From assembly GCA_036172245.1 (NCBI GenBank), contig JAYWIR010000004.1, positions 5,146,001 through 5,210,000 on the forward strand: DNA of 64,000 nt, read 5' to 3'. A program made the position numbers and the translations under genes. The number at the start of each line of letters is the position of its first letter. The stretch's first letter is position 1. Shown in pieces: positions 2,751 to 49,800 of the stretch. This DNA is from Raillietiella orientalis. Its lineage: Eukaryota. The notes beneath the pieces were generated by a model, which was given only the letters and a program-made list of their open reading frames with translations, was not told where the DNA came from and ran no database searches.

Positions 2751-3494
2751 ATCAATCATCCACTCTCCTCTTCCCTCCCCGGTGCGCGTCTGCGACATTC
2801 ACGGCCCACTGCCGAGATGCACGGGGAAAGTCCCCCTTTCCTCCTGTTCGTGGAAAATAGGAAGCGAGCGAGAGCGTATGTGCAACCCATCGAGCCCTGG
2901 AGAAGGTTTCCTACATTCCAACCCCCTTCCTCCCTCCAATTTACGCTTTATCACATGGAAAACGGGGAAACGGGGAGATGCACCTCATCGGTGCCCTTCT
3001 GATAGCAAGGAGCTTCTGGGAAAACGTTTCGAATCGCTGTTGTACCACTGCGCTTGTTTCCTGTAGAGTGAGTGCCGCACGTTGGACGCCTTGCGGCGGC
3101 ATCTCGGAAGGAACGCAAAATTAACGACGGCAAGAGGGAAGTCCACCGATCGTGCCGGTGTCACGTGCTCAGGAAACGGGAGCCTCTCCCAGAGGACTAC
3201 CTATTTCCCAGACTCCTCCGTCCCTCCCGGCCTAAGCCGCGCACTGCATTCTGTCGTGACCTCGCCGCCCCTACTCCCCTCCGCACTGTTTCACAGTAGT
3301 CGACTGGAGGAAAGACGTCACGGCTAAGGAACGGATGGTTGGTGACAGGGCAAGGTGAAGCATGCGAACCCACGGATTGTCAAGAGAGGTCTCTTGCGCG
3401 CTCCTTACGGACGGTTTCCAATCACCACCACCCTTCCCTCGATTGCATTTCGAGCCCCCGAGGCATGGCAAACCTCTATCCTCTTCTGTTGCAG

Positions 3495-3669: not shown

Positions 3670-4054
3670 AACCGCCAGGGGAGCCGGCCGAGTGGTCTTC
3701 CTCCTTCTGGTGGCTTTCAGGAGGGAGGGGGTAAGAGAAAAAGGAAGGGGATGTTGCGATCGCCTGAGGGCGCATGGCGGCTGGAGGATCACCGGCCCAC
3801 ACTGGAAGTCGAGAAGCGACCGACCGACCTGCTCAAAAAAAAAGCGAAGCAAACAACAGCAACAGCGACGACAACCAAAGGGAAGCAAAAATAAAGAAAA
3901 AAGGGCATCCTGTCCTCGCTCTTCCTCTCCTTCTCCGCTGCACCGCCACACCCCTCTTCTTTGACGTCTTTCTCCTTCTCCCACCTCCGCATTTTCTTCT
4001 CCGCTCTCCGTGGGTGCAGGGTTGCCCTCGGAACGCAGTCGCACGACAGTCGCG

Positions 4055-7000
4055 ATGGCTGAGACGGCGAAGGTGGTCGTGGTCTTCCTGATGATCATCG
4101 CCACGGTGTTCTCTACGTCCAATTGCCCCCAGGAAAAGGCGCCCATCTGCGCTTCCAACGGGAAGACGTACAGGAACAAATGCTACTTCGATTACTACGC
4201 CAAGCCGCAAGGTAAAAAGTCCTTCGGCGACCCGTTTTCCCCAGGTGGGAGGAGGGGAGGGGAGCGGAGGGGTGGTGGCACTTGGGCCCTCCATCCACGA
4301 GTCAAGCCGGGGGACCGGCGGCACGAGAGGAATAGCAGCTTGGCTGTTGAAACGGAGCGAGCCGAGCTGTGGTTCCTGGAAGAGCGTGCAGGAGACTCTG
4401 CGGTGCCAGAGGGATCGGAGGGGGTGGAAAATTACTTTCCGGGAGAGGGAGGTTGCTCATCCCTGTTCCGTTCCCTTCGCAACCCATTCGCACTGAGGAG
4501 GCAGCTCCGCGTCGCGGACGCAAGAGGCCTTCCGACGGAATGCCATCCGATCGGCCTCATGCTCTCTCTCTCTCTCCCGGACAATCGCGGGCCGTGCGAG
4601 AGGCGCTGACTTCTGGGAAAAGAACGATCCAGGCTCGCGAGTGCCGTCGAAGCGGGAAAGTTCCCTCGACCCACGGACCGCTTACGCGGATGCAATCGGC
4701 CTTTCGGAACGCTGCTGTCTTTCCGTAGGCACAACGGCAAGAGAAGGTGGCAGCGGCATCAGGTTTCCGACATCTGCTTGCTGCCGTTGCCCGACGAGCA
4801 ATGGCCACGAAGATCTTCCTCCCACCCCATTTCCTTCCTTCCTTCCTTTCCACGAGGCTCCTCTTTCTCTCTTTCTTTTTTCACCGGTTCCCTTGCCTGC
4901 TTTTCCTCACGTTGGTTTAACAGCACGGTACGCACCAAACCCAAGAGTGTCTGTGTGGGGGGAAGAGGGAAGCTCGAAATGATGCCTGAGTGATGGTGAG
5001 GAGATATGGTGAGGACACACATCGGAAGCCGGAGCGCGGAGGAGGCCGGTCGCCTCGTCCGATGGGGAAGAACCCAGGGTGAACGCGAAACAACCCGCGT
5101 CCACAAGCATGGTACGTCACCGCCTTTCTCCCTCACTCTTGGCACCCTGAGAGCGCATGCACGGATGAGCTCCCAAACTTTCTGCAACAACAGTGCCGGA
5201 TGGGAGCAGAAGTAGGGAGCGGCTGGGGATGGAGAGACAGCTGTTGAGGCGCTGCCTGCTGTTCGCCTCGAGCATTGTTGCTCCGCGCAATCCAGCGCAC
5301 TTCGACCTTAGCCCAGGGGCCGAGAAGCGGTCTGGCAGACTCCACGGAAGTGGAGTCATTCCGCGGCCTTCACTTTCTGACAGTTTTTAGGGTGGTTCTG
5401 CATGACAAGACGTCAGAACTACGCCGCTTTAGGAAACTTTGGGCGGTCAGCCAGTGCCCTCTGTCCAAGACGCATGATTGTTTGCGCGGAGAACGGCCAC
5501 GATCCCAGCAGAGCTGATACTCCGACTGTAAAACGGAGCCTAACCACACCTAACCACAGTAAAATGAAAGGGGTGGGCCACACAGAATGGATTGTGAGAG
5601 ATTTTCCAGCTCCGTGTCAAACTGTGTATGCAAGCGTTCTGAAAAATTGGATTACGAATACGCGAGCAGCGCTATATGGGATTCGCTCCTGACGAGGCCG
5701 AATTTCAGCGTGTGTGTGTGTCAGAGCAGGAATGTCGCACATTCTTCGGCCAAACGATGGCTTCTAGGCCGGAAAGAGAAGCAGGTTCACTAGTCGGTAT
5801 GCATGCAATCAGTCGTTGCTGCGGTCATGGACGAAACGACCGCGTACGCCGTACATGAGTCGATCGTCGTCAGAGTACAGTGATGAAGAGTTGGGAACGG
5901 TAATTTGAAACAGTCTGCTTATTTGCGGTGGGAAAGCGGGGGGGGGGGGGAATCGCTTGCGCAATTTCCCGAGCGAGAGGAACACACCGAAGGCCATGGA
6001 AGACCCAGATGGAGACACACGGGACGGATACCTCCACTGTGATTTCTAAACCGTGTGTCTAGTTTGTTTCCGCACGGAAAGGAAGTTCCCATCCGCGGTC
6101 TGGCAGGAACTCCCATCTGAAGTGCGGTTGCTTGGTCGTTTTCACATCGACCAAACGATGGACCGCGCCGTTGCTGATTCATACAGTAGAAAATTATGAC
6201 TCGATGTTTTCTGAGCAACTGGCAGGTAAAAGATTTTATCCACATTGTATCCAGAATTGTATATCCTTAAAACCCAAGTGCCCTCTCCCCCCTCCTGTCC
6301 CTTTTTGCTTTTCGGTTTCGCCGTTAAAAGCAGTAGTAGTGGAAAGTGGCGAAAAGGAATTGGGCAGAGAAGGAGAGCGATTACAAACGATGTGTCGTAT
6401 ATTTCGAACGCCATTCGCATAACCACGAACTCGTAGTGCGCACGAAAATTGCGGAAAAAAGTGTGCAGGAAAGTCTCTCTCTGTCGTTTTCCCCGCACGT
6501 AATACGCGTTGGCGTGCACCTGCCAACCGGAATGTCAACAGCCGTTGCGCCCCGGTGTGGGCGACGCGCTCTCAGCTTTCAACATGGAGGAGGGCCGCGC
6601 CGCTCCGCCTCGTAGGCCCTAGAAGGGTGACGGCGGCGGATGGAGGACAGCGGAGGGCGTTCGAGAAACTGGACGCGTCTCCATTCCTTTCTTTCGCATC
6701 TTTCCGATTCTGTTCGTTCTCCGTCTTCGTTTCTGGAATGAGGTCGAACCGCCCTTCCGACGAAGCGAATGAGGCGGTGGCCACCACCCCTCTCTGTTTG
6801 AGCACCTACTTGCACCACACCGCGATCCCGGTTCCCCGAAGCAGCTCGTGTCCTCGTGGTCCGCGAAGAGTCCTCTTTTCCTTTCCGTCCCAAAGGTTGC
6901 TCCTGGACGAGAGGGAGCCAGACTCTCTAGCGAGAAAACCCTCCAGGGGGAAATTCGGGCCACAGCAGGCGAAGCGCTAATGCTGCAAGAACCGGGAGGA

Positions 7001-14707: not shown

Positions 14708-15421
14708 GCAATGGTACCTCAATACTCGTCGGTTTCGTCACTCGTCACAAGCTCCGGAACGAATTATTGACGAATATCGAACCATTGCATACATATATAC
14801 ACACATACATACAGCATATATACTGCACTCGGGTCATGCACATACGACACGTATGTCTTTATTTAGTCTCCTGTATTTAGTCTCACTTTATAACTTACGT
14901 ACGTACGTCCCCTGCACATAATTTATCTGCTTTTCGTAGTCTCCTGTATTTTTTGTTTAATCTACAGATGTGTTCCGTACAATGATAGTCTACATGCCAC
15001 GTGTGCTCTGTACATGATCCAAGTGCTGTGTATACTCCTGAGCTCTTCGTACTCTCCACGTTTTCGCGAAGGCAAGTTTCCCCAAAGAGTCAAGGAATGG
15101 TCCTGCGGCAGCGAGCGACTCCTGACGCTGCCTCGTGAAGACGACGGCGCTTCTCCGGGAAGCCCTCGTGTCCGGCGAGTGGGGCACCCCACCTCCCTTC
15201 CCCCCTTGTCGGTCGCAGAGCGGGAGGGCGGCGTGGGACTGCGCGCGTCCGAAACGGAGGGCGGCGCCACACCGCCGCTTCCGCTTCTTGAGCGGCACTC
15301 GCCCAGCATCCGGACCCAGGCGTGACGCACGCGTGCTTCGTACTCGCCTGCGCTTGGCAAAGTAATTCGTTCCGCAACTCGTGACGAGTGCGAAACCGAC
15401 GAGTACCGAGGCACCATTGCA
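14708..15421. mobile_element. Tc1/mariner-pogo-type non-autonomous element ends (~59-bp imperfect inverted repeats) in TA-rich microsatellite
   Basis: tgcaatggtacctcaatactcgtcggtttcgtcactcgtcacaagctccggaacgaatta (from ~14707) is the near reverse complement of 15363-15421. Both ends abut (TA)n. The CA[A/G]TGGTACCTC terminus resembles Tigger-family TIRs. Confidence 0.65.
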
Positions 15422-17032: not shown

Positions 17033-18364
17033 TGAAGACGTGTGCTCAGCTTGGAACTCGTCTCGGTGAGAGGGGATTTCCTCCGTGGAGGGAGAGCCGA
17101 AGAAAGGGAAAGAACGAAGAAGCGGGAAGCGCGTCGTCCCCTAGTTGTATCTTTCTTGCGAGCACGAAGCGAACTGACAAGGTCGCTCGGGCGCATCTGC
17201 ACAGCGGCACGGCAGCCGATGGAAAGGCACGCATTCAACCGTACCAGAGAGCACAGAGGCTGGAAGCGCACATGGGAGAGCGCTTTGGTCTCAAGGGGCT
17301 GGGCAGTCTGATGACCCAAACGGTGAACTTGGCTCACAGTCACAAGAAAATGCTCCCGGAGGCGGGTGAAAGCAACGTCCCTACCACCACCACCATCACC
17401 AAAAAAAAAAAATGACCATTGAGAATGGTGAGAAAAGCGATTGGGGCTGGGTCATTGCAATAGGTTTTTTCCCACTGCGAACGATGTCCCAGCCTAAGTC
17501 TCCACAGCACATACACCGCCGGAACACTGTGTGTTTCAGCACCCTGCCGCCTGCTTCTTGGAAATTCAAAGGGAAGAGGAAGAGAAGAGATCAGTCCTGA
17601 GGATGGAGGACACTCCCTACTTTTGGAATAACTTGTAATAAATAAAGATGAACACTCACTTGTGCCACTTTGTTTTATTAGCTTTGCTGTGACGTATCCA
17701 CTAAAGGGATGGATGAGTAATTCCGCAAACGCATATTAAATGAAAAATTAATTTTTATTCTTTATTAAACATTCTCAGAGCTATAAAGAAAGGCGGACTT
17801 TTTACACCCACAAGGAGATAACAGCTTCATCTTCTGCTTGAGAAAAAGAGACTGGGAGCGACCGAATGTAATAACTGTGAAAGTTCGATCCACGGTTGCC
17901 AAGGTTTCCGTTAGAGTTCTGAACCTTTCTGCTCCAGCTAGGCGATTGTTTTCTTTCATACTTAAGAAATCAACTGTTGCTTAACAAACGAAGCTCACCT
18001 TCCCATCTCTTTTGTTCGTCGCCCTTTGGGCCCATCCACAGCACCGGCGACCCGAGAAACATAGCCAGCCCGAACATAGCCAGTTCGAACCGACTGCCCT
18101 AGAGGGCAGGGCATTCGCACAGCTCGAAAATGAGAAAGGAAAAAAAGGACAGACCGTCAACCGTGATCCCAGCTGCGGCAAATTTGAAATTCCAGGAATT
18201 GGGGCTCATTTCGCTCAAAACTACGGCCGCGAGACAAAAATTTCCTATGGAATGGAGCAGAGAAACAGAGTGGACGCATCGTCATCCGCGCATCCTTTGA
18301 CACCGCCGATGATTCGGGGCAGGAGGAGGGAACACCGGGGGTGCGCTGCTGTGCACACCCCTAG

Positions 18365-21300
18365 CGGAACGATGCTGTACCTTGGGAAGCTAGCGGGGAA
18401 GTGGATGCTGCAGGGGAAATTCGCTCTGGGACACGGTGCGCAAAGGAAAGGGGCGCAGGAGGGAAGCGTCTCCTCCAAGCGGGCGGAAGCCGCAGGGAAG
18501 CCGTCTCCCAGGAGCGAGGATGCGCGTCACGTTTCCTCGGATCGAGGGCATCTTCTCTCGGAGGCATCGCTATCTGACAGGGAATCGCAGAAGCGGGTCG
18601 GGGGCTCCCGGATGCGGACGCGGAAGTCGGTGGCGCCTTGGGCGGTGCTCTCTCCGCCGGGCTGATAGTCGGACGAGAGTCCGCGGGAACGCGGGCCCGC
18701 CTCGGGGCACCCTCTTTCAGGGAATCCCTCCCCCGTCACAGGTGTTGCGTGAAGGAAAGGGGGGAGGGAGAGCGCTCCCTGGCGGCGCATGAGCCAGCCC
18801 TTTCGTTCCGGCAGGCGGGAGACTTCCGACTTCCTGCTGAAGTTCCGGTCGTTCCTTTGAAGGGCGGCGCGCTTTCGCCCTTCAGAATTGCGGACGCGCA
18901 AGCCCCGCAATTCCCACTCACCCACTCCGCGCCCGCCAATGGGTCCGTTGCGCGCGCCAAACTCTGCTCGGCAATCAGTTATTAGCAGAGAAGCTGCTAA
19001 AGGGAGCCGCGAGTACCGCGGCGACCACCCTCTCCTCTTTCTGTCTCTCCCCCCCCCCCCCCCCCCATCGATGGCACGCTGGAACGCATGGAGCCCGTGA
19101 GACAGCCGGCAGAGCGCGCACCGAGCGAAGGATTGCGTCCCCCCCTCCCCCCCTGTTCCAGTCGAGTTTAAGGGAACTGCTCCCCCACCCCGTGAAGGGG
19201 AGGGGAGGGAGCGAGGGAAGGGAGGGAAGAGGGCTTCTTGTTTTCCGGGAATGCCTCCGGGCCACGACTTTCCCGGCCAGGGGACGACCTTCGACGAAAG
19301 GGGTGCGCTGCGCAGCAGGCGGGAAGCCGAGTCCTCCTGTTCTTCAAAGAGTAAAAATAAATCAACGAAGAGGAATTTCTTTGCGAATCCATGTGTGTGT
19401 GTTTTTCCCCCAAGGAGACGAAGAGGTCGCGGCGCTCACCGATCTCCAGCCAGGAGGCCTCGCGCTGACTACCTTGCATTCCATGTTACGACGATGGCTG
19501 GGAGCAGCGTGTCAGATCTTGGGGAAGACGGAAGAGGTGGAGGGAAACTGTCGCATCTCTTCCCCATCTCCCATCCCCCCTCCTCCCTTCCTTGCGTGCC
19601 TGGCTCTCCTGGCAGCCGCGGTCATCTCCAGGGGAAAAACAAAGCAAAAGGAAACAGCAGAAAAAAGAAAGAAAAGATGCGATCGGCAGGGTTTCGATCG
19701 GCATTGTCGATCGTCTCGTGAAGGAGGGATGGGGGGGCTTGAAAGGGCCAGTTCGGCTGGCCGAGCGTTGAGGTACCTCGCTTGGACTCGAGAGGCCCGT
19801 GTGATGGAGTACCGTACGCACGGAGACAGACGGCTTCCTGCCTTTCGAGAGAGGGAGGAAGCCGAGTCGGGCGAGCGACTGCCATAGCGATCGCAGGTGT
19901 TCGCGGCGGAAAGGAAAAGAAAAAGAAATTAAACGAAAAGGGGTGGGAGGGAGGAAATCGGGCAGCCATCCCGTGAGGCAAGAGAATCTCACGGCACGAG
20001 AGGGGGAAGCGGAGACCTCCCTCCCGTTCCGCTTTCCCGCCTGCGAACTCGGCTCCTCCCGCCCCACCCTTTAGTTCGAGGGATCACCGCGTTAGGGGCG
20101 CACGACAGGACTAGGGAAAACGCGCGCACTGTTTCTTGTGCTGTTCCGCACCGGCTCCTGAATTCCGGCGGCGGCGCCTCTGGGTGAGGGAGAGATGGGG
20201 AAAGAAGGAAGGGGGGAGGGGTCGTTCGGCAATGCATAGCAGGGAATCACCCGGGACACCTCCCAGCGGGCTGGCCGCCTCTGGGTGCCTGCCCGAGGAG
20301 GAAGTTGCGCCACCGCACGAGGAGCCGAAGGGGCGGGGACGGAGCGCGGGGACCGATGACCATCAGTCCCGATGGCAGTGCCCACCGCGATGCTGCGCTC
20401 CCTGTGCGCTCTCCTCCGTTCCCTCCTCCTCCTCCTCTTCCTCCTGGCGGCCGGGTCCCGGGCCCAGTCCCGCTGCACCCTCCGCAAAGACCCCGTCTGC
20501 GGCTCCAACGGCAAGACCTACAGGAACATGTGCTACTTCGACTACTACGCCAGGCCCCAAGGTACGTCCGCCCACCCCCGCTCGGGGAGGAAGCGCGGAC
20601 AGGACTTCGCGTGAGGAGGGGAGGGGGAGTCAAAGACCGACTGGCTCCGGACTGGATGGACCTTCCCGGACGGCCTCTGCCTCTGGAGAAGGCCCTCAGT
20701 TAGCAGCCCGGCGCCCGCGGTCTCGCCTCTCCCCAGCCGCCTCCGCTTGGGCGGGTGCGCCACCGCGAGTCGGTCCTCCGGGAGCTCAGCGTGGTCTTGC
20801 TCTCCTCCTCCAGGAGTGCGGATCGTGAAGGAAGGCTACTGCGACTACGCCGCCTCCGTGGGAATCATCCCAGAGTTCACCCCCTTGGGGTTCCGGGTCG
20901 GATGAAGGGGCTCCCAGCTTCCTCCCGGAGAGCAGGCCCGCCGTCACGATCGTCGCCGCAGCCGCTGGCCGACCAGCAGGAAGAGCATTAAAAGAGCGCG
21001 CGCCATGCATCGCCGCTGGGTGCGCTGCAATCGCTCGTTCGAGAGCGCGCGGCCTTCGCTGCCTCTCCGGGTCCCGGACTGGGAAGGGGAGGGAAAGAGG
21101 GTGTTGGGGGGCTGCATCGGGGAGGGATTGGGAGGGGTAGGGCTGTCGGATATGCCAAGGGACCCCTCTCTCATCTTCGGGGAGCGACTTTCCGTTTCAG
21201 GAAAAGTGCGTGAAAGAGATGAAGAGCGCTTTTCGTCCACTCAGAACGCTCAGTGCGATGACCTGCGACCTCTTCACGCAATCAGTTCCGTGTCCCCCCT

Positions 21301-21461
21301 CCCCCCCCTTCCCTGCGTGTCCGGAGTGCAAGAGCGAGGGAGACGTGCTATTTCCTGGGGGCTTCCACCTGGAGTTCCAAAAATACAACTTCGAAAGGTG
21401 CCGGATCGATCGTCTGGTGGGAGAGGAGGAAAGGGAGGAGGACAAGATGGGGAGGAGCTGA
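18365..21461 (+). CDS. Putative 3' exons of an unidentified gene (18365-18435, 19415-19536, 21201-21461)
   Basis: Three GT-AG-bounded, phase-compatible segments give GTMLYLGKLAGKWMLQGKFALGH-GDEEVAALTDLQPGGLALTTLHSMLRRWLGAACQILGKTEE-EKCVKEMKSAFRPLRTLSAMTCDLF...FERCRIDRL...*. Good acceptors at 19414 (tttttcccccaag) and 21200 (ccgtttcag); donors weak; no homology recognised. Confidence 0.28.
20372..20905 (+). CDS. Secreted single-domain atypical (4-Cys) Kazal-type serine protease inhibitor, paralog 2; exons 20372-20561 and 20814-20905
   Basis: Leu-rich signal peptide, then CTLRKDPVCGSNGKTYRNMCYFDYYARPQ. Donor g|gtacgt at 20561; acceptor ctcctcctccag|ga at 20813 gives GVRIVKEGYCDYAASVGIIPEFTPLGFRVG*. 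ATTAAA at 20987. The start could instead be the ATG at 20390. Confidence 0.88.
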
Positions 21462-21471
21462 ACTTTTGCAG

Positions 21472-21735
21472 GGCCAAAAAACACACACAGTGCAAAATAC
21501 ACCAAGTGCAAAAAGAGCAGGCCAAGGCATTCTACCAAATGTCGCAAGCAAAGCTGCACTTATTATTACTATAGTCATAAGAGGTCCACCTATTCCCCAA
21601 ACGTATTTAATGATATTGCATATTACCTTGGTAGTTGTGTCAAGATCAGCATCGGCAGCACTGCTCATATGTGAAAAGGAAGTAAACAATATTACAAAAA
21701 AAAACACCAAAAACTCTCCTAATTGTAGGGTTCAT
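21472..21735 (-). pseudogene. virB2: Wolbachia/Anaplasmataceae-type TrbC/VirB2 type IV secretion pilin, frameshifted and 3'-truncated (nuclear endosymbiont transfer)
   Basis: ATG at 21735: MNPTIRRV-(+1 in T run)-LVFFFVILFTSFSHMSSAADADLDTTTKVICNIIKYVWGIGGPLMTIVIISAALLATFGRMPWPALFALGVFCTV-(tgtg insertion)-FFG. The ICNII...GGPLMT...FGRMPWPALF...FFG pattern is that of Rickettsiales VirB2. No intron; AT-rich island in GC-rich flanks. Confidence 0.85.
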
Positions 21736-21785
21736 TCCTATACCTTAAATTCAGACATTGTAATTATATCTGAAATAGTATATTG
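21736..21785 (-). promoter_or_regulatory. Co-transferred bacterial upstream region of virB2 (TATAAT -10-like box, purine-rich RBS-like tract)
   Basis: The minus strand reads tatactatttcagaTATAATtacaatgtctgaatttAAGGTATAGGA-ATG, with TATAAT at 21768-21763 flanked by the inverted hexamers ttcaga/tctgaa. Confidence 0.4.
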
Positions 21786-28090: not shown

Positions 28091-29766
28091 TGTTTTTTCT
28101 CGTTTGAACGTTCATCTAACTTTTAACCACCGATCCATGGGAGCGATCAGGAATTTATTTGACAACCCCGATCAATTATATGACGTTGGCAACCAGTACT
28201 GTGATTGCCTGATATGTCATTTTGAGGTGCAGAAACTGAAAACAGTCCTGGAAAGAATGGATGTGGAATGAATTCCAGCCAGAACGCGCTGATTCCCGGA
28301 CTACTGCATGAATGGGTTGATATGTGACTTCATATAGGAACAGTGAAAACAACTTCCCGGTTTTGTTAGCATTGGGGAGAAAGCAGATTTTGGAAAACGG
28401 TTTCCTGAGAAATAGTTTTTTTTTTCTGTATTATCTCACCATATAACTCATGGAGAGAGTTAAGGCAGCTTTTGTCATGCCGTCAAGAGATAATCAGAGT
28501 GTATAATCAAGATGGTACCATGCCTCTCAACTCCGTAGGTTATACCGACCTGACTTTTTTTTAGTGCAGCCAGACAGATCAGATAAACTTGAAATTTACA
28601 AGATATGGCTTAGCTTGAGCAAAGTTTCACCAATCAGATTAACGCTGAAACCTTTTGAAATTTCATGCAAGGTCTAGGGATGTTATCGTTACTACTCTCA
28701 AGGACCACCAGGGGTTTGGGAACCCTGGACTGGTAATTAATGATGTGGATTTTTAAGCTAGGAAGTAGTGACGGTTTAAAGAATTTTAATTTCGGTATTC
28801 GCTTCAAGGATGCACATCTGTTTCAAGATTATTTAAAATCGACCGTCAGACGTTTTCCTCTTTCCTTTGTTTTATTTATAATGTATTAAGATTTTCGATT
28901 CCATTGATGCTTTTGTCATTTGTTAATGAAAATTTGCTTGTTCTAAGTTCTTGAAAGCTGAATACATTTTGTTCCTCGAACTTCAACTTCATGGTTTTCT
29001 ATTTTTATATTTTCCCTATACTTTTATAAAAAAACTTGATGAATTGTTCATTTGCTGATAACTAACTCACGCAAATGAAGATAGGGATTGGAATTTTTCC
29101 CTACAAATATTGGATAGAAGTGATCCAGAGTTGCAAGGGGTGGAATTAGAGAAAACAGTAGACTCAGATGTGCAGTAAAGCATTTCATGAGTTCGAAGTG
29201 GCGAAAACCCGAAACATCCAACATGTGTAACTTATGCATTGTATATTTAATTTACTAGACCTATAGACAATTGAAACTACATAAGGATCACTCTAAATAA
29301 AACGCTAATTATATAAACGTAAAGTACGCAATTTCATGTTCCTTGTATGTATTAAGATGTGAAAATTGAAACAAAATAAGAACGAGACCTCAAAAAGCAG
29401 ACTAACTGCTAAGTAAAAAGTACATTGCTACATGTTAATAGGTGCTTACCGGTCTGTGGAGATGACTGCAAGTGAATTAGCAGGTGTAGTATTTACACCT
29501 AATTTGCAGCCATTGAATAGGGATGAGTGAAATAGAGATCTATTTGTATGTTAAATTATCCTGTAATACCATATGTAATATAGATGGAAATTTGGTATAA
29601 AGAATGAAAGACATCGCAGACAGTAAGGAATTTTGCTATTCATGATCTAATGCACTACTGGATATCTGCAAGAGTTACTTCAGTTTTTGTGTACATGTAT
29701 TTATCATTTGGCATTCCTGGTATTTCATTTTAATATAATTCTAAAGTTACCAGAAAACTTGGAGCA

Positions 29767-32700
29767 ATGGATACAAAATCAGTATGTGCAAAAATTGGCC
29801 CATCGATCTTGAATGCAGATTTATCGTATCTGGCTGAAGAGTGCAAAAAGTTATTGTTGTGTGGTGCCGATTATATACACCTAGATGTCATGGATGGAAG
29901 TTTTGTCCCCAATATAACCTTTGGACATCCTGTAGTTGAATCCCTAAGAAGACATATAACTGATGCATTTTTTGATGTGCACATGATGGTCCAAAATCCA
30001 GAACAAGTAAGACAATATTGCTGTTAAGTATGATTTGGTACCCGAATATAATCATCATGGGTTGATGTTAACTGAACCAAAATAAAAATTTCTGCCGTTT
30101 TTCTCCTTCAAAAAAATTGTATTTTGCATCTATTGCAAGGTTTGTTTTCCGATTTGTAACTCTTGAAGATTCAGAAACCAAATGTACAACAGGAAAACAC
30201 AAACTGAATGTACTCAGATCATACTCTATGTTACATAGTCAGTAAAAAGATTCTTGTATTGCCCTTAGAAAGACAATGAGTTAAAAACAACATTTGGTGC
30301 TTAAAAAAAGTTCATTTCTTAAAACTTCCCTTTTTGGGCGTAGCATTCATAGCATTCCATATGATTCCATGTGACCAAGTGTTTTTAAAGCATTCAAATT
30401 TTTGTTTAGTTTTGCAACATAGTTTTGCAATTTCTGTTCTTTGAGCAGAGCAATATATGCATGTTTTTATTCTGTGCAATGTTCACATTTTAGTATATAC
30501 TAACATCTCTCATTGTCAGTATATATATTCCAGTATATGATTTTCATGTGTTTGCATATTGCTAAATTGCTGTAAATCTTTTGGATCTACAATTTCCTGA
30601 AATTATGATGATTAAATGATAACCCCTGAATGTTTTTTTGATAATCAGTTTGGTGTGGTTACTTTATTGTTTAGTGCAATTGTAGTTTTAGTCAATAAAG
30701 CTTAATCTATAGCCCTTATTTATTGACAGCAGCTTGCTGCACAAAAAAAGAATTCTTTTGATTTAAGCCTGTACCAAAAATAATTAGCTTGGACTTTACT
30801 TGATTTCTTTTATTTTTTCCAGTTTATTGTATAAACTTAAGTTGCATCTAAACATTCACTTATTTTGGTAACTGATTTCGCAGTTTCATTGAGCTGCAGC
30901 TCACCTAGACAAAAAAAAAACATTTTTCATTTCAGGATGTTTTTTTTTTAAATAATTGCTTATATGATCTATTAAGGAAAGAGTCTATCAAAATGTTGTG
31001 TGCTCTTAAAATGTTTTAGTTCGAAAGCAATGTTTTCACACCATCCTTACTGATAATGAGAACACCATTTCAGGATTTCCTGGTTCTATTTCTGTTTTAC
31101 TTGTGTGTACAAACTGGTGATTTAATGCAATATTAATGGATTTAAGAGCTTACACAACTTCAGTAGGAAATGATATAGTGAGCATATCATCCAGTTCTCT
31201 TTTGTGATTAGTTTTTGAATACATGCTAATCAATATCATGGAGTATTGAAAGTAGTTTCTCAATTTGTCAACTTAAACATAAGTAAATATTCATTGGTTC
31301 AATGGATGGAATATTTAAGTAGATAAGTTGTTCTGAAACTCTTGAATCTTGTTTAGATTCACAGATTTCCGATTAAGGAGACACTATGTAGTGAGATAAG
31401 GGGTGCAATGCTTAAACAATGAAGTCCTAATCAAAAACAACTGGAATCTTGGCCATTTTTTTTTTTTTTTCCTTCTTGAACTGATGTTATTTCCATGGCA
31501 TGATATTTATTCAAGAATGTGACGATGGTTTTGAATATGCAGTTCCTGATAAGATCTGGATCAATGTAAAATGAATAAGTTTTTGATCTAATTGATTTTG
31601 CACTGAATAAATGAGTTTTTGATTTGGAACTTGAACAATGAAGTAATGCATTGGATTAGGTATTCCTGAAACACTAAAAGCCATTGTTGATTGTTTACTT
31701 CATCAGATGTTCATTGCATTAAATTAATTAAATATCCCTCAAAGGTTGCTGGTTGTTTATGCTCATTATCTATAGGAACACTCGAGAGTTTTCAGTTTGG
31801 AACTGCAGGTGACAATTAGATTGTTTATTGACAAATTGGACAAGTTGCATGGTAGTACAGTTCTGTACCATATCATGCAACATAGCCTGTTTTCAAACAT
31901 ATTTTAATTTTCATTTTTAAACACTTGTACCTTTTAAAGCACTTCTGTAGAGTTGTAGCTGAATGGATTATCATCATATTCCAAGTGTTGTGATGTTGGA
32001 TTTATGTGGTTCCCCACTGTGAGCAAAAGAAAAAAACTTTGCATTTGCCCACATCTTTTGCTTGTAAATTGTGCATACATTTGCAAGAAATGAAGGAAAT
32101 GCAGTTTCATGGTTGAAGAAGGAAAAAAAAAAAAGTTCTCCACATAGTAATTTTAGATACACTTATTTGGCTTTCGAACAAAAGAGTGTAATGGGACTGT
32201 GTTAAGCTTAGAAATGACAATGTGATATCAAACAAACATTTCAAACATTAGGTGCACAATGAAAAATTTTACCGAGTTTTTAAACAAATAAAAGTAAAGA
32301 TTTAGAATCTTTATTCAAAAAACACTGAAGATTACTTCAGGTAATTCAAATAACTTTATCACTGTAGAATTCATAAAACACAGTTAATACATAGCAACCC
32401 AAAACTGTTTAAATAAACTCAGCATTCACGTGGATTAGCATTATTATTTCATTCATCCTAAGTTTAGACTCCTAAACTTAGCTTCTGTGTTGCACTCTTT
32501 ACTGATCCATGTTCAGTCATCAAATGTTTGAATTGCAGTGGGTAGAGCCAATGGCGGTTGCTGGTGCAAATATGTATACTTTTCACTTGGAGAGTACAAC
32601 ACAACCAATTGAATTATGTCAACGTATCAAGAGAGCCAATATGAAGGTTAGTGAAATTATTAATCCTTATTAATGTTACCATCAAGCCTGCTGTTGCATT

Positions 32701-33060
32701 AAAACCTACAACACCTGTAGAAAACGTTGTAAATCTGGTTGATTCTGTTGATTGCGTGCTTGTGATGACTGTAGAACCTGGTTTTGGTGGCCAAATGTTC
32801 ATCACAGACATGATGCAAAAAGTCGCTTCGTTGAGACGTCAGTTCCCATGTTTGGACATAGGAGTAGATGGTGGGGTAAACAAGGATAACATTGTATTAT
32901 GTGCTCTTGTGAGTTTACTGTACACTGCACATCACATGGCATCTGTTGTATTCAGGCAGGGGCTAATATGATTGTATGCGGCTCAGCTCTCATTAAAAGT
33001 GATGATCCAGCAGAATACATTAAGCACCTTCGTGATGTTGTGAACTGTTCCCTGAGATGA
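29767..33060 (+). CDS. RPE: Ribulose-phosphate 3-epimerase; exons 29767-30006, 32539-32646, 32687-32908, 32956-33060
   Basis: [69 protein letters not shown]. All introns are GT-AG and phase 0; open frame through to TGA at 33060. Confidence 0.97.
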
Positions 33061-33134: not shown

Positions 33135-34662
33135 TTAAGTATCATCTAATTCACTGGTATCTCCACTACCATAAGTAAACCATTCATGGCTCCCTATGTC
33201 TGATTCTATCAGATGATCTTCATTTTTCATGAAGCGAGCAAACCTAAGCTAAACATAATCAATAAACGACAATAAACAGAATTATTACCGTTTGGGGTTT
33301 TCGAGTCTGCTAACTAAATCCCAGACATTACACTGTGGGCTTGAACAAAAACTACGCAAATTTTCCAGTGCAAGGCTAGTTTCTCTTTCACCTTCTTCTA
33401 AGTATTCTTCTTCAGTGAGCAAACGACGGGGTTGTTGCTGATACCTGAAACAAAGCAGCATGTAAAATGGTTTGTAAAATAACAGTTTCTTGTAAGACTG
33501 GGTGTTTGACCAATGAGTGAAACATCAACTCCAAAAGTCCCTTCAAAAATGGTATGCTACTCACCAAGATATCTGCAGTCTATACCACCAGCAAGGTAAC
33601 AGAGAATAAACAGCTACCAAAAGAACTGATACTGCAAACATGACTTCCCATAAGTAACTGCTAAAACAAATCAACAGCAGGCCAATTCCTTGTAACATCC
33701 ATATCAACAGCTGTAAACTGCGAGGATGTGTCATTGGTTGGTAACGATACAATAGTGCAAAGGATATTAATGCAGTGAAAATTATGTATGCAATTATCAA
33801 ATTCACATGCTGGTGGACTAGGGAGTGGAAATTGCTCCATGCAGACTGAAACGCATACAGCATTATGGACCAGCCACCCAGGAGAAAACTGTATGCCATG
33901 ATTTTCTGAACTCAAATCATTAATGGACTTTCAAATGGGAATTACCTTTGGCATTAAACGACTTAGAATGAAAATCAGTATCAGTGCCGATGCAAGGACT
34001 CCAACTGATGTTCCCACTGTATAATAAAAGACTATGCTATTTGCAAAGAATGTAGAGCAGAGAAAGAGAGCTACACCAATGGCACACTGTAGTACTTTCC
34101 ATGGGTCAATTGCTGAAATTTAAAAAGTTCATTTTCACTAATTAAGAGAGCTTACATTTCCAATGCAAATGTAGAAAATAAGGTGACTTGGTATCAACTC
34201 CTACACAAGAGGCAGAAAAAGGATGTATTTTCATTGATTTTTGTTTCCATGGTTTTAATGCTATCCATGCTCTTTGAGCATCATGATAGTTTTGCAACAC
34301 CAAAGACTCATTTTGGGCCGTGTAGAGTTCAAATTCCTCACCTTTGATATTCAAGTGTAACTGCTTTAGGGTTACATAATATTGTAATTGTAGCACTCAC
34401 AGTTACACTGCTGAATACTTTCCAAAGTGCTTTGCCTTCTCCATTATAACAAAATATTTTCATTTCAGTAGAATAAGAACCTGGAACTTTCACGATGTGA
34501 TCCTTTTCCAAAGTGGATACGATAGCTGGAACTTAAATTTCCAACCTGTTCCTCAAAAAAAAATTCTGAACACATACTCTGAGCTCTGCATACGGCAAGA
34601 ATCATAAAAAAGATATTCAGAAGCACTCCATAAGTCTCAGCTCGCATACTTTTACATAGCAT
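33135..34662 (-). CDS. NEMP1: Nuclear envelope integral membrane protein (NEMP/TMEM194 family), about 7 exons
   Basis: Signal peptide; IFCYNG; IHPFSASCVGV; FYYTVGTSVGVLASALILIFILSRLMPK; LLGGWS; RSLQLLIWMLQ; RLLTEEEY...ETSLALENLRSFCSSPQC..W..VSRLENPKRFARF. Short GT-AG introns; TAA at 33137-33135. The exact start and first intron are less certain. Confidence 0.92.
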
Positions 34663-46417: not shown

Positions 46418-46804
46418 AAAAGATCGAGAGGCACATTCGAAAAATGAAAACTTTTTCACAAAAAAAGGCACTGAAGCTCATTTTTATAGGATTTCTTGGA
46501 AATTGCAAGTTCTTCCTATTTGTCTAAAATCGTGAAAGAGGTAGAACTTCGTAAATAACAGGAAAACAAATCAAATGAGTCTTCAACACTGCAAATTCCA
46601 ATTAGTCTTGTGCTGAAAAGAAAGGCACAATGGAAGAGACAGCAAATGGCAAACACGCTGTAGATAAAAAAAAAGTTCAGCGGGATTTGACGATAGCAAT
46701 TGGAACATGACCGATTATTTAAGGCAAGAGCGAATTTGAAAGGGTTTTTTTCTTTGTGTGGGCTTTCTAAACTTTTACTGCAGAGCCGGTAAGTCATATC
46801 TCAC

Positions 46805-49800
46805 CTGTTTCGGCCATCTTTGTTTTTGCATATTCAATACGAATCCCACCTCTGTCTGACGATTCCAATATGTATCCCTGTAAAGAATTCATCGCATGAT
46901 GAGCGAAGCGAATATCTTGGAATTCCACAAAAGCACAGACAGAACCTCCTTTATTGTGCATCCTCAGACGAACAAAACCTAAAAAGCTAAGAACACAATT
47001 ACAGTTTCACAGTCCGTTATAGTCCGACATTCTCGCTGGCCGCCACATTGTACATTCGGACGGTGTCTTTTCCTCGAGTTTAGAAACATTTGTGCCTCGA
47101 AGCTACGCACGTCGGACTTTCTTTACATTTTAAATACGAAAAGGCCTGATTCAGTAAATAAGCTAAGGGTCGGAAAATGAGCATTAGGTCGCTTTGTAAC
47201 CACGAGTAGTGTTTTTAAAACGAAACACCAGTTTCCATCTTCTGCTCCATTCTGTTACAGAAGATCAGTCAGTAATTGCTCGTGACGGGAGAACCGACTT
47301 TCGAATTTCCATCAGTGACCAGGTACGAAGAAATCAGAGATAAGCAATAAAGTAGGAATGCCGCATTCTCAGCTGGGGAAATGTGCATGGGTCTTTCTTT
47401 CTTTTCTTTTTTTTTGAAAAGGTAGGAAGAGTACCAGGGAATCATGGAGTGGGGTAAACATTCGTTTGTGCATTTGTGTAATTAAATTATCTACCTCATA
47501 AGAAACAAGCATTCGAGACAATCCACAGGTGGATCCACATAAAGATACAAACATTCTTAGTATCTGTTCACACATTGTCCAAAGTGTCGTGTTATTTGCT
47601 CTGCCATTCCGTCTCCGAATCCATGCATGAGTGCTTCATTTAATTAGGTCATTCACATAATAGTGCAGAGGGACTGCCACTGAAAAGTTCTCGTGCATTT
47701 CAAATCCTCGAATTTTCAAGAACCAAGACAGGAAGAGGAGCGATTCCTTTCCTGTGCGTCCCATGCATCTCCGGATTCCAGTTCGTCCTCCTGTAGAATT
47801 TTCATCTTTAACTCAACTGTTTAACTTCTTCCGAGTCTCCTCCAGCACGACCTCTTCAAGTTTAGAAGTCCGATTGTGAATTCTTGAAAGGTGCAAAAGA
47901 ATCGGCTGCTTTATTTGAAAATGAAACCACCTTGGGGGAACATCCGATTCTTATCTGTGCAACTCAGCTGACTTTGAGAGAATGTTTGCATTGGAGCCCA
48001 CGTTTCGATTTTGGCAGACTGTCCTGTTCCTGTTTCGCATGGAGTTTCCTGTTAAATCGCCCTAAACAATTTACACTGTGATTGCCAAGTCTCTGTCTGT
48101 AGTTCTTTCAACGATCCCTAACATCATATGTAAATATCTCAACTGAAACATTTCTGTAACCCTTCCTCACGGAAGGTTTTGAAAACACGAAATTCAATCC
48201 AGAGCTCTTCAGGAAGAAAGATATAAAAACCGTTTACCACCTCAGTAAAATTCCAACCTAAAAACTGAACATATTCAGGCATTGGCACAACTAGAAAATC
48301 GAGCGTACAATATGTTCCAATACTTCGCTGGCATTATTCAAGAATCCATTAACTTCTAGTTTATTCTCAAGGCAGCTCCATTTTTACAGGTAATGAAGAA
48401 AAAAAGCAATGAAATTGATATGTCAGTGCTATCTTCAAATGATGATCTCGTATTCGATTTAAATAATAAATTCACTTTTTACAAGGCTATCCCTTGTTTC
48501 AATCATTGCCCGCAATTATGAAGGGAAACAAACTCAAAATAAGCAGTCCCTGGTTGTTATGGGGGAAGATTAACATGCAGGATTAGATAATGGTTAGAGG
48601 AAGATCAAATAGAGAGGGTTGTATTGACTGTTAGACACAGGGCAAAACTTTCAAAGAATTTCGATCTTCCTATTTTGAACTGAATTTAGCCTCGGAGACA
48701 TCTAGATCAGCGTTCATTACTATCAGAAGAGAGATCACAACTCATCGTTGGCTTCTATCATGGTGATGGTGGTGGTGGCGGGAAACGGTATTTTCTCCTA
48801 CATTGGAATCACAGCTATAAATCTTTAGAATCGACATGTATAGAGCATTCTGAAATTTGGTGTTTGTTAAAATGACAATCATCGAAACACAGGGAGCTGC
48901 AGAAGGAATCACAGCAATACCGGAAATGGCACCTGAGCGTGAAGGGAATGCAGGAGAGTATGGCGTGCATTTGTGCAGAATACAATAAGGAGAACCAGAT
49001 ATTCTGTGAGCTGGGAAAGCATATGCTATTTTACAAAATCTGTTGATGACTCATACATTATGAGATTCAATGCTCGAGTCTCACTAAGATTAGAGCCTCC
49101 ATTCACTTCGCATATTCATTATCATTCATAATTGAGCAATTTGTGATTTCAATTTAGCCCGTACTGAGAGAAACTTGAAAGAGGACAGGTAACAAGACAT
49201 GACCAAAATGGGGTCATACCAAATCAGGATGTGTAAAGTACAGCGATCTAAATTACACAGTAATTGTTGTGAAATACAAAGAAAAAGAAAAAATGCAGTA
49301 AAATGAAAACTCGTCCATGAAGATCATATCAGGGCAGAACAAGAATGTTCTCTAAACCACACCATTGACAACTTAGGTACAGAAGCACCGTTGCTCCGGA
49401 ACACGAATCAACATCACAGAGACAAGGCACGCAGCTTAAGCACCATGTTCATGTTCACTTCCAGTTTAACATGATCAAGAAAATTAATACTGCTTTAACT
49501 TTCTGGTTTTGAAATAAAGGAACATGATGAAGAAGCAACAGAAACAACCATCTAGCAACAAGGTGGAAATCGAAAGGGAAAACAAAGCAATCTGAGAAGC
49601 AGGATTTGCAAATGTCCAGTTCATTAAGGGACGCCGAAACGAAAGAGCACTGGCAGTGAAAGACAAAACGGTTTTCCATGAATCCGAGCACATGTGTGAA
49701 AATTTGGAATCCGTGACGGAAACAGCAAAGATGGCAGACATGACCGTAGATCAAGCAACGTTCCTAAATGAAGAGATTGATACATTTTAAGAATTACCGC

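Follow-up and report, generated by a model that had tools for sequence, protein, structure and literature searches.

A decayed Wolbachia virB2 fragment in a probable arthropod contig, a putative nuclear transfer

An island of 322 bp in a GC-rich animal contig is very probably a nuclear Wolbachia transfer (NUWT), a decaying Wolbachia fragment residing inside the chromosome of an animal, most likely an arthropod. The island lies in a 64-kb stretch of DNA that was analyzed at its full length and is called the window here; its features are collected in Table 1. We propose that a short piece of a Wolbachia chromosome would have been pasted into a host chromosome, probably when a break was closed by end-joining, and that this integration would have taken place in the germ line. 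The donor may have been a Wolbachia strain of or near supergroup F, and the piece, by now a dead fragment, would be functionless and drifting neutrally. That the transfer took place at the level of DNA is shown by the non-coding bacterial spacer that accompanied the gene. The original prediction had held that the piece was decaying in a host genome rather than sitting on a live symbiont contig, and this is borne out by the frameshift and truncation of the gene, by a gap-free contig with non-bacterial flanks, and by the presence of intron-split animal genes on that contig.

Table 1. Features of the island and of the neighboring host DNA (window coordinates)
Feature	Position	Strand	Details and basis
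Wolbachia-derived fragment (putative NUWT)	21463..21784	-	322 bp, 36% GC; blastn, alignment, GC
Spacer homologous to non-coding DNA upstream of Wolbachia virB2	21736..21784	-	49 bp, came along with the gene
virB2 (TrbC/VirB2 pilin) pseudogene	21463..21735	-	Start codon and codons 1-88 of 116; Pfam, alignments
T-run	21696..21704	-	9 T versus 8 positions in 4 of 4 aligned relatives; alignment column 131
(TG)4 where relatives carry (TG)2	21482..21489	-	4-bp slippage-type insertion; pairwise to L001-L004
CCC	21471..21473	-	3 extra bp, either inserted or filling the junction; homology ends 8 bp further on; pairwise to L001-L004
Putative first exon, secreted Kazal-type inhibitor	20372..20561	+	Pfam Kazal_2, 35.2 bits versus cutoff of 22.8
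rpe (ribulose-phosphate 3-epimerase)	29734-30024, 32645-32968	+	Two exons 2.6 kb apart; Pfam
NEMP	33288-33524, 33564-33911	-	Two exons about 40 bp apart; Pfam

The bacterial origin of the island is apparent from its composition and from its similarity to Wolbachia DNA and protein. Its GC content is 36.0%, compared with 60.8% and 64.2% in the 500-bp flanks, which agrees with the earlier description of an AT-rich island between GC-rich flanks. The minus-strand translation contains DTTTKVICNIIKYVWGIGGPLMTIVIISAALLATFGRMPWPALFALGVF, the same peptide that had been quoted when the island was first noticed. When scanned against Pfam, the stop-to-stop frame at 21348-21731 matched the TrbC/VirB2 family (PF04956) at profile positions 13-86 of 98 with 43.2 bits (E = 4.6e-11), above the gathering cutoff of 27.9 bits; an NCBIfam scan of the fragment's frame returned 0 families. 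In blastn comparisons, 311 bp of the island aligned at 90.7% identity (E = 5e-121) to a locus of wTis, the Wolbachia strain of Tettigetta isshikii (L002), a match far beyond chance, and 320 bp aligned at 88.75% identity to each of two others, one from wPaur (L001) and one from a MAG (L004).

Searches of larger collections led to the same group of bacteria. When 5.8 billion proteins were searched through a word index, all 162 candidates scored at an E value of 1e-3 or below, and among the 120 protein matches listed, every row that named an organism named Wolbachia, save two MAG rows labeled "Rickettsiales bacterium." When a single genome of each prokaryote species was scanned for similar loci, 34 loci were confirmed among 250 pattern matches. 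Thirty-three of these were in Wolbachia or Rickettsiales records, with a best amino acid identity of 89%; the remaining locus, in an Oscillospiraceae MAG, was a weak match (36% identity, E = 7e-4). Judged by these comparisons, the island is a piece of a Wolbachia virB2 locus. The Wolbachia TrbC/VirB2 identity proposed at the outset thus holds: a DNA and protein comparison with Rickettsiales had been suggested as its check, and a failure to find VirB2 as grounds for giving it up, and the best matches were to Wolbachia virB2. The gene had also been described as multicopy in Wolbachia, in agreement with the up to 8 matches that we found per Wolbachia genome. The extent first given for the island, 21472-21785, was right to about 10 bp, with both edges shifted relative to the DNA homology (Table 1).

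Comparison with the wTis locus revealed how much of the bacterial sequence is present. There, virB2 is a 116-codon ORF (2968-3318) preceded by a 372-codon ORF, putatively DnaJ-like as read from its sequence. Homology with the island begins at 2919, ahead of the gene start at 2968, and the corresponding spacer in the island aligns to all four orthologous Wolbachia loci (five-way alignment A1, columns 51-99). The native start codon of the gene is retained at 21735-21733. At the other end, homology stops past codon 88, and the final 28 codons and the stop codon are missing; the position of this left edge could be off by about 11 bp, as blastn matched the wTis locus no further than 21474.

The retained part of the gene carries three further lesions. 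A +1 frameshift in the T-run falls after codon 11, and the ORF that begins at the native ATG ends after 29 codons. A single-base frameshift in a 9-base homopolymer occupies a classic site of sequencing error and could be such an error. The TG expansion was seen relative to four of the five relatives compared, the fifth (L005) aligning differently there. Three lesions had been predicted, and each is present in the assembly: the extra T, about 10 bp from its predicted position near 21710; the tgtg expansion near 21485; and the 3' truncation. The CCC insertion was absent from that list. When the frame was examined for the parts expected of an intact PF04956 member, the leader, the two helices, and the C terminus were not found in one ORF. 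From its profile match and alignments, the piece derives from a member of the TrbC/VirB2 family and is a pseudogene fragment rather than a working pilin gene. With a +1 frameshift, +4 and +3 insertions, and the loss of its 3' end and stop codon, this copy is shown by its assembled sequence to be incapable of encoding a pilin.

To place the island among Wolbachia virB2 copies, we constructed a maximum-likelihood tree from the island and, for each of 33 loci, the stretch that matched it best, with 282 columns kept. Wolbachia virB2 formed two paralogue clades in this tree, each with support of 100/100, and the island fell inside the one with 11 rows. Its closest relatives form, together with it, a subclade of 6 rows (support of 97/97) that includes wTis, wPaur, wStur, and the MAGs Gx481_bin163 and Spi319_bin9. 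In the other paralogue clade, wMoz and a Paracimex strain, both of which we take to be supergroup F, are joined by the second copies of wPaur, wTis, and Gx481. The supported nesting of the island and the common upstream spacer place the island in Wolbachia virB2 paralogue group 1. wPaur, the Wolbachia strain of the louse Penenirmus auritus, is a supergroup F strain (PMC9903615). A literature search for Tettigetta isshikii together with Wolbachia found nothing. Our best guess, drawn from one short gene (282 columns) and a subclade in which wPaur alone bears a supergroup label, is that the donor was of or near supergroup F; Wolbachia recombine.

Several other virB2 copies were observed in the course of these comparisons. 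Wolbachia genomes contain several virB2 paralogues, some of them in tandem near the orthologous copy (at 700-1250 in the wTis locus and at other loci). The virB2 copy of Spi319_bin9 (L003) is situated where a 5.5-kb contig ends and has a terminal branch of 0.12, similar to the 0.14 of the island; this copy could be a host-integrated fragment that was binned into a MAG. P0001, a JGI metagenome protein of 97 amino acids from a 1757-bp contig, is VirB2-like with several odd substitutions and has an aberrant C-terminal tail where its relatives continue. This protein, too, could come from a virB2 copy that has decayed or been transferred.

The contig around the island has the character of animal DNA. 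The window is gap-free and contains no N, and the two flanks of the island are alike, with a GC fraction of 0.627 on both sides and CpG observed/expected ratios of 0.89 and 0.87. We scanned 300 stop-to-stop ORFs in the window against Pfam. Besides the pilin, the matches were to rpe, NEMP, an RRM exon (46797-47006), and two Kazal domains (in ORFs 3965-4606 and 20360-20611); no bacterial family was found in the 300 ORFs across about 21 kb upstream (52-68% GC) and 5 kb downstream (about 63% GC).

The genes rpe and NEMP, located 8-12 kb downstream of the island, are split by introns. The best solved-structure matches of the rpe exons were 3OVP, 3QC3, and 1H1Y, each with the molecule name ribulose-phosphate 3-epimerase, which we take to be the human and rice enzymes and to be of the eukaryotic cytosolic type. 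Among the 120 rpe matches listed, all rows that named an organism named animals, at 64-78% identity. A bacterial transfer of rpe was considered and rejected, as exon 1 is closer to animal Rpe (64-78% identity) than to the Rpe of Wolbachia (54-56%). For the NEMP exon, an earlier protein homology search gave no match at an E value of 1e-5 or below, and an exhaustive phmmer search of 1.84 billion representatives gave 243 matches, the best at 39% identity. Six of the top ten NEMP clusters named an organism; five were arthropods (Strigamia, Daphnia, Nilaparvata, Rhipicephalus, and Hyalella) and one was a mollusc. The rpe, NEMP, and RRM exons are of animal type, and the host is accordingly an animal, probably an arthropod without a close relative in the protein collections searched.

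Nearer to the island is an exon that is putatively the first of a gene for a secreted Kazal-type inhibitor; it encodes a hydrophobic, signal-peptide-like leader and half of a Kazal domain and ends at a putative donor, AAG/GTACGT, at 20561/20562. A paralogue of this first exon is found about 16 kb away, at about 4055-4211 on the plus strand, and both exons end in CYFDYYA(K/R)PQG before a GT donor. A comparison of these two paralogous loci by blastn and tblastn yielded no convincing second Kazal exon downstream of the island.

The window as a whole is a sharp compositional mosaic, with three switches between GC-rich and AT-rich blocks along the contig. The GC content is 52-70% in the GC-rich blocks, at about 1-27 kb and 37.5-44.5 kb, and 30-38% in the AT-rich ones, at about 27.5-37 kb and 45-64 kb. 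The exons of housekeeping genes (rpe, NEMP, and RRM) lie in AT-rich blocks and the Kazal exons in GC-rich ones. The CpG observed/expected ratio is 0.54 at 28-36 kb versus 0.87-0.96 elsewhere in the window. Other short AT-rich islands occur in the GC-rich blocks, at 17547-17908 (minimum of 29% GC) and 14726-15042; neither has similarity to the five Wolbachia genomes compared.

Within the window, the island is the sole trace of Wolbachia that we detected. Comparison of the full 64 kb with five Wolbachia genomes at the DNA level gave the island and a weak match on the conserved rpe exon. A tblastn search with 578 ORFs from 40 loci gave 123 matches in the window, of which 115 fell on the island and 8 on rpe. 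Of the ORF located ahead of virB2 in Wolbachia, the window has no trace. At the junctions, no repeats or target-site duplication were found above the level of chance matches, and of two exact strings, one at the right junction and one across the lesion at the left end, neither matched any metagenome contig. In the assembly as given, the island runs directly into host nuclear DNA at each end; these junctions are known from one assembly.

That same fact leaves room for an artifact, in which 322 bp from a co-sequenced live Wolbachia strain were wrongly joined into the host contig during assembly or library construction; symbiont DNA is a routine component of samples from arthropods that carry Wolbachia. 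We consider such a chimera unlikely. For a short piece bordered left and right by host-type DNA, a chimera would need two independent false joins, within a window that is free of gaps and between flanks that are alike in composition and have no sequence in common with Wolbachia. Moreover, the truncation and the 4-bp and 3-bp insertions are absent from the four aligned living orthologues.

Divergence from the living copies bears on the age of the nuclear transfer. The terminal branch of the island is 0.14, versus 0.0094 for its sister wTis. Over codons 1-83, the dN/dS between the island and wTis is 0.31 (10 non-synonymous and 9 synonymous differences), compared with 0.05-0.17 among the four living orthologues. 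This ratio falls well short of 1, so that much of the 9% divergence probably dates from the bacterial lineage, before insertion, with the caveat that these counts are small. At sites where all four relatives agree, the island has 14 private substitutions: 10 AT>GC, 3 GC>AT, and 1 T>A. On the island branch, the skew toward AT>GC relative to GC>AT changes (10 versus 3) is not significant (two-sided binomial test, P = 0.09). The GC content of the island is still similar to that of the living orthologues (34.9-35.9%) and far from the 61-64% of its surroundings, which would make the insertion fairly young on the compositional time scale of the host. Within the limits of these small numbers, these observations together suggest that constraint was relaxed along part of the branch and that the insertion is not an ancient one.

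The fragment might instead have acquired a role in its host. There is a very slim chance that it was co-opted, as a transcribed membrane peptide or as an antisense element in the first intron of the Kazal gene; in a milder version, it would be all that remains of an extinct, supergroup-F-like infection of an arthropod lineage that is poorly sampled. Domestication, whether as a small membrane peptide expressed by the host or through an antisense or regulatory effect on the neighboring Kazal gene, strikes us as highly improbable. A 127-codon stop-to-stop frame, the one at 21348-21731, does cross from the fragment into host DNA, and from an internal ATG it would specify about 105 codons in which two hydrophobic pilin helices are fused to a host-derived tail; further, the island lies about 900 bp downstream of the Kazal exon donor, on the opposite strand. 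Against this, GC-rich DNA yields long open frames by chance, as illustrated by the 45 ORFs of at least 150 amino acids in the window, which overlap on both strands; the leader peptide is out of frame; and dN/dS is raised, not lowered, relative to the living copies. Finally, the notion that the contig belongs to a live symbiont or to contaminating bacteria rather than to a host chromosome, in favor of which stands the Wolbachia identity of the 322 bp and nothing further, has a negligible probability and is ruled out by the flanks, which lack any bacterial family in the 300 ORFs scanned and share a gap-free contig with intron-split animal genes, and scans of the window gave 0 tRNAs and 0 Rfam families.

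As a nuclear transfer, the island marks its host lineage as a past or present carrier of Wolbachia, probably one close to the supergroup F strains. With a whole genome and a sister species, it could help to date that infection. For annotators and for the users of contamination filters, the locus is a caution, as it would be host DNA and not symbiont DNA. Our understanding of how Wolbachia transfers happen is unchanged by the island. Its added value is modest and lies in the supergroup-F-like signature and in an apparently poorly sampled host.

Compared with the virB2 copies of wTis, wPaur, Gx481_bin163, and wStur, the island has 89% amino acid identity, 88-91% DNA identity, and the same spacer upstream. 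Unlike those copies, it is frameshifted, has two small insertions, breaks off 28 codons short of the stop codon, and lies outside a bacterial genome. With wPaur, an example of supergroup F Wolbachia, it falls into the 97/97 clade in a tree of one gene with 282 aligned columns. Nuclear Wolbachia transfers were reportedly described by Dunning Hotopp and colleagues in 2007. In 22 filarial genomes, NUWTs serve as a record of infection, the "ghosts" of past infections (PMC12693587). The island resembles the NUWTs of arthropods and filarial nematodes in being a short, non-functional fragment in nuclear DNA that can serve as a record of a present or past infection and of the supergroup of its donor. 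It differs from known NUWTs in that a single fragment was seen in 64 kb, in that its junctions are taken from an assembly, and in that its host has no close relatives in the protein collections. Short NUWTs are already a well-described class, and the island is one more example of it.
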